Position numbers and translations under genes: made by a program. Positions 15,782 to 23,090 of a DNA stretch of 64,000 bases are shown piece after piece. The notes under the pieces were generated by a model. The model was not told where the DNA came from. It was given only the letters and a program-made list of their open reading frames with translations, and did not search any database. Every line of letters begins with the position of its first letter. Position 1 is the stretch's first letter. The stretch is from a phage, in the sequence record PZ386957.1; one strand, given 5' to 3'.

Positions 15782-17029
15782 ATGAAAGTAACCAATCAAT
15801 TTAATGAACTTTTGCGAGAGTCCACTACGTCTGTAGCAAACCAGACAGCACGCCCACAATTATTATCACTGACTCGCGCGGTTAATAACCTGATTTTCTC
15901 TGACTTAGTAGCAATCCAGCCAACCGAACAACCTGTGTGCGCTCTGTATGGCCTACGCTATCTCAATCGTGATGGTCAGATGACTTATCGTAGTGCAGCT
16001 ACTTACGGTGGTGCAGCAGGTGATCGCACAGGGATCGAAGAATTTAACAAAGAAAAAGATTATCAAGCGGGCGATCTGTTTGACTACGAAAACGTGGTTT
16101 ATCAGGTTGTTGAGGCTGGCGTAGTTAGTGCTGGCGCAACTACTGATGAAGAGGCAATTTTCAAAGGTGTAATGGCTAACAAAATCCGTTTCTATAGTGA
16201 TTGTGCACCAACGGAATATTTCGAAGATGCAAACACCGAAATTTCCACAACTAGCATGGATTTTGATAAATGGCAGGTTAATGTAGGTTCTCGTAAACTG
16301 AAAACCGAATTTACTACCGAGTTTATGCAGGATCTGGAAGCAAACCAGATGAACTCCGAAAATGCAGTAGTGGATCTGTTGGCTACGGTAGCCTCAGAAG
16401 AAATTAACAAAGATATCATGCAGAAGTTGATCACTATATCAACTCGTTATAAAATTAAAGGTGTAACCCCAGATGGTGTTCTTTCTTTGGTGGGTGTACA
16501 GGATGCACCGAAACAAGCGCGTGAACTCTACAGATATGCATGTGAAATGAGTAATCATATGCTTCGCACTTCGTCCTTTGGTGGCACTTACGTTCTTGCG
16601 TCTTCCCGTATAGTCGGACTTCTCCAGTCTACTGGATGGATGGAAGAAACTGATAATGCATTAAGTGAAGGCCGTTTACGTTGTGGCTTAGAAGTCTATG
16701 CAGATACTGTTACCCCGTTTGATTATATGCTCGTTGGTTGTAAACATATGATCGGTGACATGGAAAGCATTGGATCTCTTTTCTATTCTCCATACACAGA
16801 AGCCGATGGCGCTGGTGCATATAAGAGCGTAATTGATCCGAATAGTTTCAACCATAAAGTAGCAATCATGAATAGATATGCACTTTCAGTTAACCCATAC
16901 ACCGCCAAACAAGATCAAGATGTACATACTCCAGTTAAAGGCGATGAATGGAATAAACTGGCAGGTCGTTCAGAAATGTCTTATATTCTGGGTATTGAAC
17001 TGCCACCGCTTGAAATTGATAATGCCTAA
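15782..17029 (+). CDS. 24: Head vertex protein
   Basis: 415 aa; collinear with T4 gp24 (NELLRESTT, SANPYT near the C-terminus). Confidence 0.93.
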   Translation: MKVTNQFNELLRESTTSVANQTARPQLLSLTRAVNNLIFSDLVAIQPTEQPVCALYGLRYLNRDGQMTYRSAATYGGAAGDRTGIEEFNKEKDYQAGDLFDYENVVYQVVEAGVVSAGATTDEEAIFKGVMANKIRFYSDCAPTEYFEDANTEISTTSMDFDKWQVNVGSRKLKTEFTTEFMQDLEANQMNSENAVVDLLATVASEEINKDIMQKLITISTRYKIKGVTPDGVLSLVGVQDAPKQARELYRYACEMSNHMLRTSSFGGTYVLASSRIVGLLQSTGWMEETDNALSEGRLRCGLEVYADTVTPFDYMLVGCKHMIGDMESIGSLFYSPYTEADGAGAYKSVIDPNSFNHKVAIMNRYALSVNPYTAKQDQDVHTPVKGDEWNKLAGRSEMSYILGIELPPLEIDNA

Positions 17030-17617
17030 CTAAATACCAATCCAATCTAATGTAGATCCGCCCAAGATTTTTTCAACGGCGGATCTATTTTCCTGATGAT
17101 ACAAGTTAAAGCATGGTATCCCATGTCTACGAGCAACATAAACAGCAATTCGAGTTCCTCCCGAAACGATTCCATTTACTTCTTTCGCCCAGAATATCAC
17201 ACAATCCACAGGATCATCAAGTGTCTCACCCAAGACTTGAGCAACATTTCTAGAAAACAGATTTTGCATGTATAACGGTATAGAACGAGGATTATCATAA
17301 ACATGTTCTAATTCATCCATTGCCAGATTCTTTTGTTCTAAAGTTTGCCAAGCAATAACATCATGACCGTTATGCTTATGGTCATAAAACTTCCAATTTG
17401 GTATGAATATTTTTCTATAATCAGGGTCGTAATACTTCATGAAAGCATTATCCATACCGTAAGCCCCTCCAGAATGAGCTATAACGCGATTTTCTGACAA
17501 TACCCTCCCAATGGTACTAGCCAATACTAAAATGTCGCTAGGCGCTTTTCTAGAGCCGATTAAAGCACATCTACGAAGTGGTTTTACTCCAAATAGATCT
17601 TGTAACTGGTCAAACAT
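17030..17617 (-). CDS. DprA/Smf-like Rossmann-fold protein (putative ssDNA-binding recombination mediator)
   Basis: 195 aa; motifs LIGSRKAP, VIAHSGGAYGMDNAF, FSRNVAQVLG, IVSGGTRIAVYVARRHGIP resemble the DprA core; RBS GGAGG. Confidence 0.6.
   Translation of the reverse strand: MFDQLQDLFGVKPLRRCALIGSRKAPSDILVLASTIGRVLSENRVIAHSGGAYGMDNAFMKYYDPDYRKIFIPNWKFYDHKHNGHDVIAWQTLEQKNLAMDELEHVYDNPRSIPLYMQNLFSRNVAQVLGETLDDPVDCVIFWAKEVNGIVSGGTRIAVYVARRHGIPCFNLYHQENRSAVEKILGGSTLDWIGI
17043..17085 (+). terminator. Terminator for gene 24 embedded in the 3' coding end of the convergent minus-strand gene
   Basis: Perfect 10-bp inverted repeat TAGATCCGCC...GGCGGATCTA with 15-nt loop followed by TATTTTCC. Confidence 0.5.
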
Positions 17618-18001
17618 AATATTTCCTCCATAGAAAGCAATATCATACTACAAGTTAATAACAAATACAAGTATCCGCGTAGCGGAAGCGAGCACAGCGA
17701 GCAATAAAACACTTCCAGTAATTGATTAATAAATGTTCGAAACAAATTTTTATTATTCTATAAGATAAGTCTTCGTTTTGATCATAATTTAATCATACTA
17801 ACAAAACTGATCATCAAAGATATCGCTTCGCGAACTCCTTCGGAGTATAACATTTATGTTACAATATGTGGTGTTTAATTATTAACCAAAGATACAATTT
17901 CTATATCTATAAGATACTTCTTCGTTTTGATTATATTTTAGTCAAACTGTATTATTTGTGTACTAATGTAAACTTAAAGTGTGTAAAAATAGATACAAAA
18001 A

Positions 18002-18021
18002 AGCCGCCCAGAAGGACGGCT
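18002..18021 (-). terminator. Rho-independent terminator for the 19118 early operon
   Basis: On minus strand AGCCGTCC-TTCT-GGGCGGCT followed by TTTTTT. Confidence 0.65.
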
Positions 18022-18029
18022 AAAGTTAA

Positions 18030-18467
18030 TTATTTGTTAATAATGATTTGATTCTGACGGATCGTTACATTGCTTTTAGAGATGATCAGGTCATCCGGCA
18101 CTACGTTAGTTTTGTATGGCTGGAAGCGAACAAGCATCTGATTGCGTTTAGACCCTTCTTTGATCTTGATCTCCATTTGGATATTCCCACCTACACGCAC
18201 TACTGCGACCTGACCTTTATTTTCGTATACCCATTTGCTAGTATCATCACCAGCGAAAGCCTTAACGATCTGCAACGCTTCGTCATATGCAGTAGAGCTA
18301 TGAACTTCTAACAGACCTGCCGTTGCCAGACGGGAGCAGGTGATCGCCGGAGATTGCCATACATCAACATTGATTTGCTCGATCAAAGTTGCACCGCCCA
18401 GATCAACTGCTTTGAATGCTTCGAACATTGCTTTTTTCATTGCTACGTGGTTTTTACGGAATTTCAT
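18030..18467 (-). CDS. Hypothetical protein (145 aa)
   Basis: ORF with GAGGTG RBS; no family recognised. Confidence 0.7.
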   Translation of the reverse strand: MKFRKNHVAMKKAMFEAFKAVDLGGATLIEQINVDVWQSPAITCSRLATAGLLEVHSSTAYDEALQIVKAFAGDDTSKWVYENKGQVAVVRVGGNIQMEIKIKEGSKRNQMLVRFQPYKTNVVPDDLIISKSNVTIRQNQIIINK

Positions 18468-18513
18468 AATTATTCACCTCTATTGATTAAGTATTCATAT
18501 TGTCAATTTCAAA

Positions 18514-18798
18514 TCAGGACAATGCCTTATTGAATGCGTCCATTATAACAGTGTTTTTCGGTGTGTCAACTCTTTTTATTGTTGCTGGCTTAACTTTTTT
18601 GCGGTTCTTGTTAATGTGACGTTTGCGATAAACTACCTTTTCACGGTTGGCGTAAGCCTCGCGAGCGTCTTTAACCATTAACCATGCTTTCGCGGCTTCT
18701 TGTCCACTGATACCGCCTAGTGTTCTAGCAATATCAACAAAGTTCATACCTTTGTCCTCGCGGAGCATGTAAACCATCAATGCTTTCTGTTTGTCCAT
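18514..18798 (-). CDS. Small basic protein with helix-turn-helix-like segment
   Basis: 94 aa; MNFVDIARTLGGISGQEAAKAW looks HTH-like; K/R-rich C-terminus. Confidence 0.6.
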   Translation of the reverse strand: MDKQKALMVYMLREDKGMNFVDIARTLGGISGQEAAKAWLMVKDAREAYANREKVVYRKRHINKNRKKVKPATIKRVDTPKNTVIMDAFNKALS

Positions 18799-18995
18799 TA
18801 TTTCGCACCATCAACGATTAACAGGATAGTGATCAGTACCGGAATCTGGATCATGACAGTACCAAAAAACCGGATAAACGCATTTTCTGACTTCCATACA
18901 TTACACGCTGCTAGCTGATAGCACATTGTTGCAACCAGAGCAAGAATATAAACAGAAAGTGGTGTAACTTCGATCAGTCGCAAAATCTCATTCAT
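18798..18995 (-). CDS. Small membrane protein (two hydrophobic segments)
   Basis: 65 aa; LSVYILALVATMCYQLAA and VMIQIPVLITILLIV; RBS GAGGTG. Confidence 0.6.
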   Translation of the reverse strand: MNEILRLIEVTPLSVYILALVATMCYQLAACNVWKSENAFIRFFGTVMIQIPVLITILLIVDGAK

Positions 18996-19003
18996 AATTC
19001 ACC

Positions 19004-19075
19004 TCATACATTCATAAACACAACAACGAATAAGACAGTAACAGTTATCAATGCCATTTTCAACCCCATATTCAT
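19004..19075 (-). CDS. Candidate 23-aa hydrophobic peptide (MNMGLKMALITVTVLFVVVFMNV)
   Basis: ATG 8 nt after GTGAGGA, just downstream of a consensus promoter; too short to be certain. Confidence 0.3.
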   Translation of the reverse strand: MNMGLKMALITVTVLFVVVFMNV

Positions 19076-19117
19076 AATATTTTCCTCACTAGGACGAGCT
19101 ACCCGTCGATGTGTGCC

Positions 19118-19145
19118 ATTATAGGCCACTAAACCACGCTGTCAA
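19118..19145 (-). promoter_or_regulatory. Sigma70-type early promoter (TTGACA-16-TATAAT)
   Basis: Consensus -35 and -10 hexamers on minus strand upstream of the 19075-18030 operon. Confidence 0.7.
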
Positions 19146-19160
19146 GCATAAAAACAAAAA

Positions 19161-19180
19161 AGCCACCCTCTCGGATGGCT
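19161..19180 (-). terminator. Terminator after hoc-like gene 1
   Basis: Hairpin AGCCATCC..GGTGGCT followed by TTTTTTGTTTTT on minus strand. Confidence 0.6.
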
Positions 19181-19191
19181 TAAGATAAAAA

Positions 19192-20424
19192 TCACGCAGG
19201 AGGCGCTTCACGGATGCGTAGCACCCGCTCTAAGATCTCGCGATCAAGTTTGTGGAACTCTTTGGAATTGTACATGAAACCGTTTCGTGATTCCATGCAA
19301 ATGCAGTCGCTATATTTTTCTTCTGCCGCTGCAATCGTCTCCAGATCACGCGCGTATCGGCTTGTTTCATAAACATGACGTTCGCGCCATTCTAAACCAG
19401 CTTCATTGAATTTAACAATCTCATCGAATACCCACCAGCCTATATAAATGAAGGATGTTTTACGCCACGGGATCGGGTGAACATATCGCCACATTTTGTG
19501 TAGGGAATCAACAATGGTCATTGTGCATTTTCGGCTTTCCTGATAGGAAAGTTCTACTGTCGCACTACCAATAGTCTGGTAAAGTTTAGCGATACACCAG
19601 AAAGACGCATGATCATCATGTGTTGCTCGTTCTTTAAACAGATGACCATCTGGCATAATGGCAAACCCTTCTAATACCTCACCTACTTCTGTTCCAAGTA
19701 AAGTCGGTTTAGCTTGTCCTTCGCGTTGCAGATACCAATTATATTTGATTGTTAGTGCTGGCATACCGCTAGAATCGCCTACAACGTCCTCTGACACGCT
19801 AAACGGCAATAGAATCTCCTTACCTACAGCTACGATTTTTGACGCTGGTACATCGCTTTCTGTGCGCAATGATGCAAGCATTACTTTAACCGATGAACTA
19901 TCAGCCGATGCCTCATTTTCGCCCCATACTTTAACAGTATACACACCATTATCAGAATTGCTAAAATCCTGAATTGTTAAATTCTCTTGTATTCCTAAAT
20001 CTTCTCCACCTTTACTCCATTCATAATGGATCACGTATGAATCGGAAGGAGCTTTACCGCCTGAATATGAAACCTTAGTATGCAATACTACGTCAGTGTG
20101 AGTAGGAACATAGAAATGTGATGGTTCGGTGATCGTCACAACTAATGCTGTTTCGTCCATGCGAAGTGCATCGCTGGTTACTTCTTCGCCTGAATCGGTA
20201 TCACGCACCGTAATTTTATATGCACCTGCATTTGCGGCAGTGGCATTAGCAATGCTTAAAGTTGCTGTATCCCCTTCATGTGGTTTATTATCTTTTGTCC
20301 ATGTATAAGTCAGATTGCTGGGTAATGGATCGCCTCCAACCGCTTCAACCGTCGCAGTTAGTGTAAATGCATCACCAGGAAGAAAACATGCTTTATCTGA
20401 CTTGAGTTTAACAGTAAATGCCAT
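19192..20424 (-). CDS. hoc: Hoc-like outer capsid protein, short paralog (Ig-like domains + Hoc capsid-binding C-terminus)
   Basis: 410 aa; Ig-like repeats; C-terminal RYVHPIPWRKTSFIYIGWWVFDEI...ESRNG matches the T4 Hoc C-terminal domain (YVHPLP...GWWVMDEI...ESRNGY). Confidence 0.85.
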   Translation of the reverse strand: MAFTVKLKSDKACFLPGDAFTLTATVEAVGGDPLPSNLTYTWTKDNKPHEGDTATLSIANATAANAGAYKITVRDTDSGEEVTSDALRMDETALVVTITEPSHFYVPTHTDVVLHTKVSYSGGKAPSDSYVIHYEWSKGGEDLGIQENLTIQDFSNSDNGVYTVKVWGENEASADSSSVKVMLASLRTESDVPASKIVAVGKEILLPFSVSEDVVGDSSGMPALTIKYNWYLQREGQAKPTLLGTEVGEVLEGFAIMPDGHLFKERATHDDHASFWCIAKLYQTIGSATVELSYQESRKCTMTIVDSLHKMWRYVHPIPWRKTSFIYIGWWVFDEIVKFNEAGLEWRERHVYETSRYARDLETIAAAEEKYSDCICMESRNGFMYNSKEFHKLDREILERVLRIREAPPA

Positions 20425-20469: not shown

Positions 20470-23013
20470 TTAAAATAGTTGAGTACCATCAACCAGATAA
20501 CCGTTTCGGGATTCAAGAACATGCGTATTGCTATAATGATGCAGCGATGCCGCAATAGTCTCGACCTCGTCCGGGTAACGGGTATGTGTAAAGTCCTCTA
20601 ACCAGTTAAGACCTTCGCGGTTACAACGATCAATCTCATCCATTACCCAATACCCTTGATACTGGAAGGATGTACGTCGCCATGGGATCGGGTGTACATA
20701 TCGCTTAAGCTGTGCGGTAGTGAATACCACACGGATTTTTTCAGTATGAGCAACATGACCCGCGTCATCGGTGATCTCTGCGTAGTAAGTCGCCTGGTCT
20801 TTATCCTTGCTGATTTGATCTTTCGGGATGGTATAAGTTTTGTCATTCGCGCCCTGAATAACGCTATCTTTACCGCCCTGTACTTTATGCCACTTCCAGC
20901 TAACTACCTTATTCGGCGTGATATGTTCCGCGTCAGCCTTTAACACAATATCCTGATCCTGACCTTCTTTAGCCACCACATCCACTGGATGTTGAAGGAT
21001 ATTAATGTTAGTATGTGGATTCAGCACAATAACAGCCGGATTAGTTTCTAGAGTACGCTCTGCGGCAGTAACTACAGCCGTGTAAGTCCCCGCATCGGAT
21101 GGTTTAGCGTGATCAATTATCAGCACCTCATCATTAGCGCCCGGAATAATCTGACCATCTTTTTTCCACTGATACGATGGTTTAATGCCGATAGTGTTCG
21201 TCGCTTGCGCATGTAGCATAATCCGCTGGTTGTAGTTGACATTATTACTTTGCGGGTGAATCGTAATTTGTGTATCATTAGGAACTACAGTCGGATCATC
21301 GGTGATCAGTACGCGCACGGCATCGGACATTTTAGATACACGATGATCGCCAAAGCCAGCCGATACACGGCAAGTATAAACGCCAGTTGATGACAATTGC
21401 GCGTGATCTTCACCATATACATTTCGTTGTTCAATTCCGGTTGGGAATAAATCCTCACCATCTTTAAACCAACGGTAACGAACTGGCAAAGCATCATTCG
21501 ACGTTGCTGTAATGCTTAACGCCCACTGTCCACCGGAACGAATGCTAACCGCTTTTGGTTGTACCGTGATGTTTAGCGTAGATTTAGAATCATCTACGGT
21601 AACTTGAACAGGATTAGATTCTTTAGTGATTCGGTGGTTCTGAATACCCATAGAAACTACGCACTTATACTGTCCTTCGTCGGCTTTTGTGATCGCGGAG
21701 AAATGTAGCGCATTAGACGTTTTACCCGGCAACAATTCATTATCTTTATACCACTGATAAACAAGTTTATAATGCTCGTAGTCAGTGGTCGCCTGACAAA
21801 TCAATGATTGAGCGGAACTAACACGAACATTAGTTAACTGCTGCGGTTGCTGTGTGATTCGAATTTCAGGCGCAGCACCGACCAGCAAACTTGCTTCTTC
21901 TGTGTCTACTGTTATATTATCACCGTAGGTCAATTTGGCTTTATATTTCGCCTGATTATATTCCTGAGTAGCCGGAATAATATGCAACTCGTTATTAACC
22001 GCACCAACAATCGGTTTAAATTCAGGATCGCCGTTTTTCTGGACATACCATTGAATTTTTACCGGAGAATAGTTGGTTGCATATTCAACGCGGAATAAGC
22101 CAAGAGCACCAGCGCCCACATTAAGTGTCTGTGGTTGCTGAATAATACGGAAGAAAGCATGATCACTGATGATCACATTACAATCTTTCGAATATACGGT
22201 AGTCTCTGCTTGTCGAACTTCCATTCGCCAGATTCCCGCGTCTGCTTTAGTAACATGGGTAATAATCAGCGATTGACCGTTTTGATCCGGTACAATCTTG
22301 CCGTTATGAATCCACACATACTCAATCGGGCGAGTAGTATCATCTGACACCACATGAGCGACTAACTCCAGTCGACCATCTTCTGGAATAGTTACAGACG
22401 ACTCGTATTGTTCAGTAATATGAACTTTCGGTGCATCGGTGTTTTGTTCCACGACTACCGGTTCGATCCAATAGTGAGAACGTGCATCATCCTGTACAAA
22501 TACTTTACAAGTGTAGTTACCAAAATCCTCATAACCTACACGATCAACGTGTACGGAAATGTTATTACGAATCTTACTCGGATCTAGTAATACATGGTTT
22601 TTATACCAGATATAAGCCGCATTATGATTATCTTCGATAAACGGGGTAGCGAAAATATCCAGTGATTCACCTAAACGCTTGTAAATGTACGTCGGAGATT
22701 GGTCTTGTGGAGCAATAAAGATTCGACGTTCAACAAGGATTGGTTTAATATCCACATATTCCTGCGGATTTTCTTTGAGTTTTACACGCGCGGTGTAAGT
22801 ACCGAACTGCTGATCTGTCATTTCTGCAATATACAGAGATTGATCTGGTTCGGTAACTTGTTCCGCTGGTACACTCTGCCCGTTTAGCTTCCATTCTACA
22901 ATATAGTCTTTAAAATCTGCGACACTAACAACCAGTCGCAAAACCAATTCATGACCTACTGATGCATAAACCGGACCTACTGTTTGATGTAAGATATTGA
23001 TTTTATCAGACAT
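20470..23013 (-). CDS. hoc: Hoc-like outer capsid protein, long paralog (~8 Ig-like domains)
   Basis: 847 aa from ATG at 23013 (AGAGGA RBS); repeated ~90-aa Ig-like units; C-terminus KRYVHPIPWRRTSFQYQGYWVMDEI...ESRNGYLV as in Hoc. Confidence 0.85.
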   Translation of the reverse strand: MSDKINILHQTVGPVYASVGHELVLRLVVSVADFKDYIVEWKLNGQSVPAEQVTEPDQSLYIAEMTDQQFGTYTARVKLKENPQEYVDIKPILVERRIFIAPQDQSPTYIYKRLGESLDIFATPFIEDNHNAAYIWYKNHVLLDPSKIRNNISVHVDRVGYEDFGNYTCKVFVQDDARSHYWIEPVVVEQNTDAPKVHITEQYESSVTIPEDGRLELVAHVVSDDTTRPIEYVWIHNGKIVPDQNGQSLIITHVTKADAGIWRMEVRQAETTVYSKDCNVIISDHAFFRIIQQPQTLNVGAGALGLFRVEYATNYSPVKIQWYVQKNGDPEFKPIVGAVNNELHIIPATQEYNQAKYKAKLTYGDNITVDTEEASLLVGAAPEIRITQQPQQLTNVRVSSAQSLICQATTDYEHYKLVYQWYKDNELLPGKTSNALHFSAITKADEGQYKCVVSMGIQNHRITKESNPVQVTVDDSKSTLNITVQPKAVSIRSGGQWALSITATSNDALPVRYRWFKDGEDLFPTGIEQRNVYGEDHAQLSSTGVYTCRVSAGFGDHRVSKMSDAVRVLITDDPTVVPNDTQITIHPQSNNVNYNQRIMLHAQATNTIGIKPSYQWKKDGQIIPGANDEVLIIDHAKPSDAGTYTAVVTAAERTLETNPAVIVLNPHTNINILQHPVDVVAKEGQDQDIVLKADAEHITPNKVVSWKWHKVQGGKDSVIQGANDKTYTIPKDQISKDKDQATYYAEITDDAGHVAHTEKIRVVFTTAQLKRYVHPIPWRRTSFQYQGYWVMDEIDRCNREGLNWLEDFTHTRYPDEVETIAASLHHYSNTHVLESRNGYLVDGTQLF

Positions 23014-23090
23014 TTGATATCCTCTTTTTAATTGCATAACGGAACTACAATTAAAATCATAACAAATATTTCACATCTACACTCTCAATA

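Follow-up and report, generated by a model that had tools for sequence, protein, structure and literature searches.

The locus between genes 24 and hoc

We analysed a stretch of phage DNA 64,000 nucleotides long (record PZ386957.1; hereafter, the window), with attention to the interval separating late genes 24 and hoc. This interval holds a gene for a DprA-like protein, an AT-rich stretch free of open reading frames (ORFs) at 17618-18001, and four small ORFs, encoding p23, p65, a gp24.3 homologue and p145. The main subject here is the ORF-free stretch. It is made of two tandem copies of a non-coding element, 125-150 nt long, that we refer to as the cassette. Coordinates of all features are collected in Table 1.

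A megablast search with positions 17000-19200 matched 59 phage records. All are Krischvirus or Krischvirus-type coliphages (RB49, phi1, JSE, GEC-3S and others), each with 99% query coverage and an identity of 88% or less. The aligned part of the window is 87% identical to RB49 DNA. Hence, nucleotide identity places the window close to the RB49 group of T4-type phages, as a new relative. The segment between late genes 24 and hoc is a conserved early-gene block carried by RB49-type phages. Its genes are ordinary and already annotated; orthologues are called as genes in the RB49, phi1 and JSE genomes. As deeper relatives we used metagenomic contigs, whose DprA-like protein and p145 are 50-72% and 55-69% identical, respectively, to those of the window. 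These contigs have the same gene order and retain an ORF-free gap of 330-430 nt.

Anatomy of the ORF-free stretch

An earlier note on this DNA, made from the sequence letters, described a non-coding region at 17618-18029. No conserved ORF was found there. Note that the functional gap, of about 385 bp, is narrower and ends at 18001, because positions 18002-18021 are the terminator of the upstream operon. A six-frame comparison of seven lineages detected no peptide conserved in any frame across the gap; on this basis, a hidden small gene and a decayed rnlB were rejected. ARAGORN reported no tRNA in the region. A search of Rfam 15 (E up to 10), with the region and with a copy of the cassette from a prophage, returned only terminator-hairpin noise, the best match scoring 24.9 bits against a gathering score of 95. 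Similarly, TRF detected no true tandem array, only an 11-nt, 1.9-copy trace. The AT content of the cassette region is 72%, compared to 60% overall. In nearest-neighbour calculations, its duplex stability ranks lowest among all 100-, 200- and 380-bp segments of the 64 kb.

The imperfect direct repeats of about 33 bp, also reported in the earlier note, are real. They are longer than was described and are only the cores of a larger unit. Thus, the two 43-nt repeats (17757-17799 and 17906-17948), which are 86% identical and lie 149 nt apart, are the cores of the two cassettes. The repeat pattern was matched 0 times in 100 shuffles and has no further copy within the 64 kb. An nhmmer profile finds 2 cassette copies in the window, both at 24/hoc.

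Read in the direction of the DprA-like gene, the cassette has a general plan. A 19-bp dyad box, TTGRTTA-N5-TRAYCAA, lies over a weak -35 element and is followed by a conserved spacer of 16 nt (AAAACGAAGA... or AAACGTCAT...). The -10 element, TATAAT or TAGAAT, is 15-16 nt past the dyad box. There follows an AT-rich segment, holding an inverted second box (for example, TTGATTA-ATAAT-TAATCA), and the centres of the two boxes are 55-64 bp apart. At the end of the cassette stands a short GC-clamped hairpin, or a pair of them, and in each a C-G pair closes a loop of 3 nt. In Table 1, the boxes are labelled O1 and O2, and the hairpins H1, H2 and H3. No hairpin is present at 17791-17803, where one with a TTCG loop had been proposed. 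Hairpins with TTC loops are instead located at 17823-17833 (TCGC-TTC-GCGA) and 17834-17846 (ACTCC-TTC-GGAGT), with a third at 17674-17686.

Table 1. Features at and around the 24/hoc interval (positions are those of the window; SD, Shine-Dalgarno sequence; PWM, position weight matrix; PeSL, promoter-early stem-loop)
Feature	Position	Strand	Details and basis
Gene 24	15782-17029	+	Gp23-family vertex protein; Pfam Gp23, 5.7e-87
DprA-fold (SLOG superfamily) protein, 195 aa	17030-17617	-	RB49p164 orthologue; convergent on gene 24
Gene 24 terminator hairpin	~17052-17088	+ (readout)	stem TAGATCCGCC.../...GGCGGATCTA, 11-bp stem, then TTTTCC; sequence, ARNOLD in G37-3
SD GGAGG and ATG of DprA-like gene	17629-15	-	sequence
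Sigma70-like promoter of DprA-like gene	17642-17670	-	TTGTAT-17-TATGAT; PWM score 8.0; directly after H3
Cassette copy A	17674-17799	-	repeat core, motif alignment; within 241-nt run identical to RB49
Copy A hairpin H3	17686-17674	-	TCCGC-TAC-GCGGA
Copy A GCTCGC x2	17702-17688	-	
Copy A inverted box O2	17739-17722	-	
Copy A -10	17760-17755	-	TAGAAT; preceding spacer AAAACGAAGACT
Copy A dyad box O1	17796-17778	-	ATGATTA-N5-TGATCAA
Cassette copy B	17823-17948	-	repeat core, motif alignment
Copy B hairpin H2	17833-17823	-	TCGC-GAA-GCGA
Copy B hairpin H1	17846-17834	-	ACTCC-GAA-GGAGT
Copy B AU stem	17862-17847	-	
Copy B box O2	17889-17871	-	
Copy B -10-like run	17911-17897	-	TATAGATATAGAAAT; preceding spacer AAAACGAAGAAG
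Copy B dyad box O1	17945-17927	-	TTGACTA-N5-TAATCAA
Copy B opposite-strand promoter-like site	17927-17955	+	TTGATT-17-TATTAT; -35 shares base pairs with O1
Intrinsic terminator of p145 operon	18002-18021	-	AGCCGTCC-TTCT-GGGCGGCT + T6; annotated in GEC-3S, G37-3, Makalu
p145, 145 aa	18030-18467	-	RB49p165 orthologue; PHROG 15652; confined to this locus type
Second perfect promoter	18542-18569	-	TTGACA-16-TATAAT with TG; inside 3' end of gene 24.3; serves p145
gp24.3 homologue, 94 aa	18514-18798	-	DUF2774, Pfam PF11242, 93.8 bits, 7.4e-27
p65, 65 aa	18798-18995	-	two hydrophobic segments; PHROG 16558; RB49p167 orthologue
p23, hydrophobic ORF, 23 aa	19004-19075	-	SD GAGG; DNA conservation ~98%
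PeSL	19118-19181	-	hoc terminator (19181-19160), then perfect TTGACA-16-TATAAT promoter (19145-19118)

Conservation and dispersal of the cassette

The gap of the deeper relatives contains the same motifs in the same order, as two copies of the cassette or, in contig L016, three. In the most divergent contigs, the flanking DprA-like and p145 proteins are only 50-58% identical to those of the window, and the boxes, -10 element and hairpins persist. Neutral DNA would be unalignable at this distance. Hence, judged by its conservation, we conclude that the stretch 17618-18001 is functional. The -10 element is TATAAT in L012, L014, L015 and L016, and TAGAAT in copy A, in prophages, and at two further RB49 loci (loci 2 and 3, see below). 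At the latter loci, the boxes are perfect palindromes, TTGGTTA-N5-TAACCAA, and O2 is the same motif inverted. Overall, the dyad box and spacer are conserved better than either -10 element.

The hairpins also covary. All 40 of 40 H1 pairs, in 8 distinct copies, are canonical, with up to 4 pair types per position. For H3, 30 of 30 pairs are canonical across 6 lineages, again with up to 4 pair types. Hence, compensatory changes, with 2-4 pair types, support the stems. All loops are 3 nt long and closed by C-G, even where the stems differ wholly (compare prophages L161 and L153). We dropped the idea that GNA loops mark one functional strand, since the H1 loop at RB49 loci 2 and 3 is GNA on the opposite strand.

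Closer relatives reveal local differences in identity. Compared to GEC-3S, gene 24 is ~78% identical and the DprA-like gene ~95%, while the 180 nt upstream of the DprA-like gene match at 100%; in the upstream half of the gap, identity drops to ~78%. An exact run of 241 nt, shared with RB49, spans 17559-17799 and encloses copy A. Exact runs of more than 80 nt occur just twice in the structural region, where identity is 77-79%, and are common in early regions with 91-95% identity.

In the 162-kb RB49 genome, the nhmmer profile identifies exactly 4 copies of the cassette (E 2e-10 to 2e-12), with the next match at 0.04. Two are at 24/hoc, one is between gene 3 and an 84-aa ORF adjoining gene 2, and one is between tail-fibre genes 35 and 36. 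Using the prophage copy as a query revealed additional copies in Krischvirus genomes. The 60 matching records, of which 59 are Krischvirus-type phages, have a mean of ~4 places each, and the positions are fixed. None of the 59 retrieved GenBank Krischvirus records annotates the cassette as a feature. A loose motif scan of IMG/VR (box...GCGWAGC) gave random matches only.

The cassette is also present in temperate phages. A BLAST match of 75-85 nt, with ~80% identity, was found in 53 of 5426 complete E. coli genomes; all are chromosomal and unannotated. E. coli TO6 has a 37-kb prophage (L153) inserted in ycdX, and the match falls within a divergent region of this prophage that spans 1.4 kb and has no ORF. 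Among the genes of the prophage are those for a serine recombinase and a Rha regulator, together with structural genes of siphovirus type. In the prophages, the single cassette lies within the divergent regulatory region that precedes a Rha operon. The homology spans the whole cassette: box, spacer, TAGAAT, AT-rich tract and two hairpins with 3-nt loops. The stems of other prophage variants differ throughout (GCAACC-GAA-GGTTGC and ATCCC-GAA-GGGAT), and these variants preserve the two-hairpin layout and GAA loops.

DNA exchange between RB49 and the prophage is documented, because they have in common tail-fibre genes and one other ORF, with up to 94% amino-acid identity. An ORF of ~145 aa is located just past hoc in RB49 (OZ035808, 16205-16637), corresponding roughly to 23.1-23.9 kb of the window. 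Its product and a hypothetical protein from the ycdX prophage L155 (16644-17099) have 85-95% amino-acid identity. Furthermore, gp36/37/38-type tail-fibre segments are common to the ycdX prophage and RB49. Given these similarities, recent gene exchange between virulent and temperate phage is likely.

Two further observations concern the surroundings of the cassette. Beside it, in the ORF-free region of L153 (4440-4700 and 4740-4940), there are 16 iteron-like TCCCC repeats, and also two pairs of longer direct repeats, CAAAGTGATCT.GAATCA and GTAGGTATATTGGT. The TCCCC array is missing from prophage variants L161 and L162. Separately, four independent metagenomic contigs from Logan assemblies (L014, L150, L151 and L152) end in or beside the cassette region, which suggests that repeats or AT-rich DNA break short-read assemblies here.

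Flanking genes and their promoters

The earlier note had placed an ORF convergent to gene 24, with the gene 24 terminator inside its 3' coding end, and this is what we find. The 195-aa ORF contains the hairpin, with its 11-bp stem, in its last ~20 codons. The enclosing 60 nt (17041-17100) fold at -19.9 kcal/mol, and the same hairpin carries an ARNOLD terminator annotation in the record of phage G37-3. At the position of the DprA-like gene promoter, relatives have TTGATT-17-TATAGT, TTGTGT-17-TATAAT or TTGATT-16-TATTAT. In contig L011 (IMG/VR UViG_3300005711_000029, ~2250-2440), an extra ~150 nt separates this promoter from the start codon. Within this segment, the motif GTTTTAG...GGTAT occurs three times, some of the copies forming inverted repeats, and the segment may represent either an inserted element or a leader that is structured.

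The description of the 195-aa protein as DprA/Smf-like with a Rossmann fold stands for the fold and does not extend to a full DprA. RefSeq names RB49p164 a 'DprA-like DNA recombination-mediator protein', and the window's protein matches PHROG 768 at 5.8e-61. A PDB profile search gave an E value of 0.0025 over residues 11-61. The protein has the Rossmann-like core of the DprA type and the SLOG fold, with glycine-rich loops as in LOG, YpsA, MoCo-carrier and ThsA-SLOG proteins. However, profile searches for the DprA domain itself fell below threshold. The Pfam PF02481 score was 21.2 bits, against a cut-off of 29.6, and covered residues 15-60 only; for TIGR00732, the score was 12.9, against 191. 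The SAM-like N-terminal domain and DML1/winged-helix C-terminal domain are absent, and the core fold fills nearly all of the 195 aa. Hence, the sub-threshold DprA matches, limited to residues 15-60, lead us to conclude that this is a single-domain SLOG protein of the DprA branch and not a full DprA. With DprA/Smf and SLOG proteins (ShosA, PsyrA, LOG, YpsA and the ThsA SLOG domain) it has in common the Rossmann-like core and the GSR...SGGAxGxD and GGT motifs. PADLOC returned only motif matches of 19-20 bits to the PsyrA and ShosA antitoxins. In distant T4-like contigs (L025-L029, 491-2046), the order is rnlB (RNA ligase 2), DprA-like gene and convergent gene 24, with zero gap. In the Krischvirus clade, the rnlB slot is taken by p145 and the two cassettes.

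On the other side of the gap are the four small ORFs. The earlier note had listed them, and all are present: first an ORF for a hydrophobic peptide of 23 aa, then one of 65 aa that has two hydrophobic segments, and lastly ORFs of 94 and 145 aa. They follow a promoter at 19145-19118. Some Krischvirus records call p23 with longer starts. The 94-aa protein, which the earlier note had called HTH-like, matches PF11242 over its full length (93.8 bits, against a gathering score of 29.2). The family is that of the known T4 protein gp24.3, an annotation present at the RB49 and JSE orthologues. For p145, modelling suggests a helical N-terminal part and a beta sheet, and the best fold match is the RctB initiator. 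PADLOC found nothing for p65, gp24.3 or p145, the three proteins that the scan covered. Nothing supports the proposal that these genes are an exclusion module.

The same block had been called an operon driven by a consensus promoter. The TTGACA-16-TATAAT promoter at 19145-19118 bears this out; a second promoter, at 18569-18542, had been overlooked. Each has 12 of 12 hexamer matches, and both are kept in GEC-3S. Because the second perfect promoter lies within the 3' end of gene 24.3, ahead of p145, the four ORFs are, as read from the promoter positions, two nested transcription units rather than one operon. The promoters and terminators of the block have the architecture of the promoter-early stem-loops (PeSLs) of RB49 and phi1. 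Promoter and attenuator activity of PeSLs has been shown experimentally, as has recombination into mini-circles mediated by them, and their association with hoc has been noted (Arbiol et al. 2010, PMC2839356). In RB49, the sigma70 promoter of a PeSL is a near-perfect match to consensus, and the stem is of the G(n)-loop-C(n) kind (Comeau et al. 2014, PMC4122927). By the published definition, a PeSL pairs a near-perfect TTGACA-N16/17-TATAAT with a neighbouring G/C-rich stem-loop and precedes an ORFan. The 19145 promoter, with the stem-loop 19181-19160 directly upstream, is a PeSL so defined. The 18569 promoter is a partial fit, being in coding DNA without an adjacent stem-loop.

Beyond the block there are two tandem genes for Hoc-like proteins with Ig domains, of 410 aa (19192-20424, minus strand) and 855 aa (20470-23037, minus strand). 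Both proteins end in a conserved C-terminal module (RYVHPIPWR.TSF...). Positions 20577-22980, most of the 855-aa gene, have no RB49 counterpart. Metagenomic relatives L012 and L015 encode an Ig protein of 845-853 aa at the position of the 855-aa gene.

What the cassette may do

Tentatively, and with slightly less than even confidence, we read the cassette as a promoter/operator-hairpin regulatory module, a non-canonical relative of the PeSL. Each cassette would be a divergent promoter/operator module, compact and probably under protein control. Here we infer transcription and the direction it takes, as well as the binding of a protein. The cassette would launch short transcripts, free of ORFs, which would end or pause on reaching the hairpins, and would thereby insulate and tune expression at a transcription-unit boundary. 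At 24/hoc, that boundary lies upstream of the DprA-like gene and is antisense to the p145 operon.

The layout of the box is what suggests divergence. On the opposite strand, the box supplies a -35 element (TTGAT(T/C) or TTGGTT), with a -10 element 16-17 nt on. In the sense direction, the -10 is good in most copies, and the -35 is weak and overlaps the box. Hence, the cassette looks like a back-to-back promoter pair, with one common -35/operator, flanked by a second operator and hairpins. At the 3/2 locus, the opposite-strand site TTGGTT-17-TATATT is correctly positioned to express the 84-aa ORF. For copy B at 24/hoc (17927-17955), and at 35/36, this site points into the terminator of the convergent upstream gene; in the case of copy B, that is the terminator at 18002-18021.

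Compared to the PeSL, the cassette is similarly intergenic, combines a stem-loop and AT-rich tract with a sigma70-type promoter, is repeated in the genome and is associated with the hoc region. Every copy has a stem-loop, H1/H2 or H3, in its intergenic AT-rich region. However, the cassette has neither a near-perfect TTGACA-N17-TATAAT nor a stem of the G(n)-loop-C(n) kind; the best sites match at 9 of 12 hexamer positions. The cassette instead has dyad boxes, a conserved spacer and tandem mini-hairpins with 3-nt loops, and 3 of the 4 copies precede no ORF in the promoter direction. Furthermore, its copies are far more alike (one profile, E ~1e-10) and also occur in temperate prophages. A second comparison is with the promoter-middle stem-loop (PmSL) of vibriophage nt-1, which likewise has a -10 element, an upstream activator-type box replacing the -35, and a stem-loop (PMC4122927). 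However, the cassette box TTGRTTA-N5-TRAYCAA and the AAAACGAAGA that follows it are unrelated to TGCTT. We rejected membership of a middle-promoter class; 4 copies per genome are too few, and RB49 lacks MotA.

Several results weigh against a promoter/operator function. In most copies the sense -10 is good, though the -35 is poor (3-4 of 6 positions) and overlaps the box, and copy B of the window has no clean sense -10 hexamer, only the degenerate run TATAGATATAGAAAT. On the opposite strand, the -10 of copy A is ruined (ACAAAA) and, in several copies, is poor or lacks the final T. Hence, with a weak sense -35 and defective opposite-strand -10 elements, neither direction is a uniformly good sigma70 promoter. 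A promoter scan of the region found 8 sites, compared to 7.7 in shuffles, and only H3 passes a terminator scan. The predicted short RNAs are no more stable than shuffled sequences (folding z-scores -1.4 to +0.3), and z-scores for the whole gap are not significant, the + strand alone reaching -2.9 with the terminator included. No candidate binding protein is common to RB49 and the prophage, which have in common only the tail-fibre genes and one unrelated ORF. Finally, exact runs of 100-290 nt are common in other regions with 91-95% identity, and the whole DprA-like module is ~95% identical. Since long exact runs are so frequent in such early regions, mosaic ancestry, and not constraint, may account for some of the 100% identity between copy A and RB49.

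A possible, if rather unlikely, explanation is that the cassettes are MotA-independent R-loop replication origins of the RB49/Krischvirus lineage, analogous to T4 oriF and oriG. By this analogy, the promoter transcript would stay hybridised as an R-loop in the AT-rich downstream DNA and prime synthesis of the leading strand. The strand displaced by the hybrid would fold into the GC-clamped hairpins, and an accessory protein would occupy the dyad boxes. The minimal T4 oriF and oriG, of ~100 bp, have a -10 sigma70 motif, an activator box replacing the -35 and an AT-rich downstream unwinding element; of the ~5 origins scattered over the T4 genome, most adjoin clusters of late genes and strand switches (PMC3016281). 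The cassette, of ~100-150 bp by this comparison, matches in having a -10, a non-sigma70 upstream box instead of a good -35, and an AT-rich downstream tract in the least stable DNA of the 64 kb. Its 4 copies are at three dispersed loci, each bordering late genes (24, with its double copy at 24/hoc; 3/2; 35/36). A related element is in the regulatory/ori region of siphophage-like prophages of E. coli, where the L153 cassette fires towards the iteron-like array, and the predicted fold of neighbouring p145 is best matched by an initiator. RB49 has neither motA nor Mot-box promoters (PMC1524935), and T4-type origin promoters are hence not usable; for this reason, RB49 origins must be built unlike those of T4.

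Set against this, no copy of the cassette has a TGCTT Mot box at -30, as a MotA-dependent middle promoter would, the genes concerned differ from those at T4 oriF (uvsY) and oriG (34), and T4 origins do not need the dyad boxes and conserved hairpins that only the cassette has. Nor is there an evenly spaced cluster of the T4 oriE, or iteron, type; the only repeats are the two long ones, with 149 nt between them. In position, the copies parallel T4 oriF, oriE and oriG only loosely, to within several kb, and ~1 in 10 random placements would match the T4 origins as well, by a rough estimate rather than a computation. The iteron array is not a constant feature of the prophages, as noted for L161 and L162. 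GC skew is uninformative as origin evidence since it tracks gene orientation, and the turn at 17 kb is accounted for by a change of gene strand. No origin is known to have been defined for any T4-like phage outside the T-evens. The earlier suggestion that the repeats could mark an origin or a protein-binding site goes in the right direction, with dyad boxes in a dispersed, conserved cassette; without iterons or a Mot box, this resembles a promoter/operator before it resembles a T4 origin.

Less probable again is that the cassettes act purely as DNA. The paired 19-bp boxes, 55-64 bp apart, would bind a dimeric or tetrameric protein of phage or host. This would loop or bend the AT-rich DNA, for repression, genome structuring or PeSL-style module-exchange recombination, and promoter likeness would be secondary. 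The perfect palindromes at RB49 loci 2 and 3, the inverted repetition of the motif in O2, and conservation of box and spacer beyond that of either -10 are consistent with this. So are the presence of the cassette in a prophage that swapped tail-fibre genes with RB49, the position of locus 3 next to those genes, and the demonstrated formation of mini-circles by PeSL recombination. However, no homologous regulator is common to RB49 and the prophage. None of the E. coli regulator sites compared (FNR TTGAT-N4-ATCAA, Fur, ArcA, IHF, DnaA, LexA, CRP and PurR) fits the dyad box in spacing or sequence, in a comparison limited to these sites and not made as a database search. The covarying hairpins, and the consistently placed TATAAT or TAGAAT, would be left unexplained. 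We think it very unlikely that the stretch encodes two trans-acting small RNAs (sRNAs) of ~65-95 nt, targeting host or phage mRNAs, each AU-rich in its 5' part and ending in hairpins and a U-rich tail. Every copy does have a promoter-like element followed by 60-95 nt with covarying hairpins and a U-rich tail, and no ORF. However, between prophage and Krischvirus, the part that would be transcribed is conserved least and the promoter region most, the opposite of a seed-driven sRNA. The stems have just 3-7 bp, and the terminator scan, folding z-scores and Rfam results described above also speak against sRNAs. It is hardly credible that the stretch is a functionless leftover, either decayed rnlB remains or a selfish or neutral dispersed repeat. 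RNA ligase 2 does abut the DprA-like gene in distant T4-like contigs, and dispersal and horizontal sharing of the cassette are mobile-repeat-like. Yet motif order and hairpins survive, with compensatory changes, at 50-58% flanking protein identity, no frame has rnlB-like or other peptide similarity, and the copy number is steady at 4, in fixed positions, across Krischvirus records.

Implications

Our analysis adds nothing new for the coding genes of the locus. What it adds is the cassette, a deeply conserved non-coding element unannotated in 59 records of Krischviruses, phages that are widely isolated for phage therapy. If the cassettes were origins, they would give phages other than the T-evens their first candidate origin. 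If, instead, the cassette is a regulated promoter and insulator, the PeSL concept would gain a second, operator-bearing class, common to virulent and temperate coliphages. It would also offer a way into the timing of gene expression in RB49-type phages, which manage without MotA.

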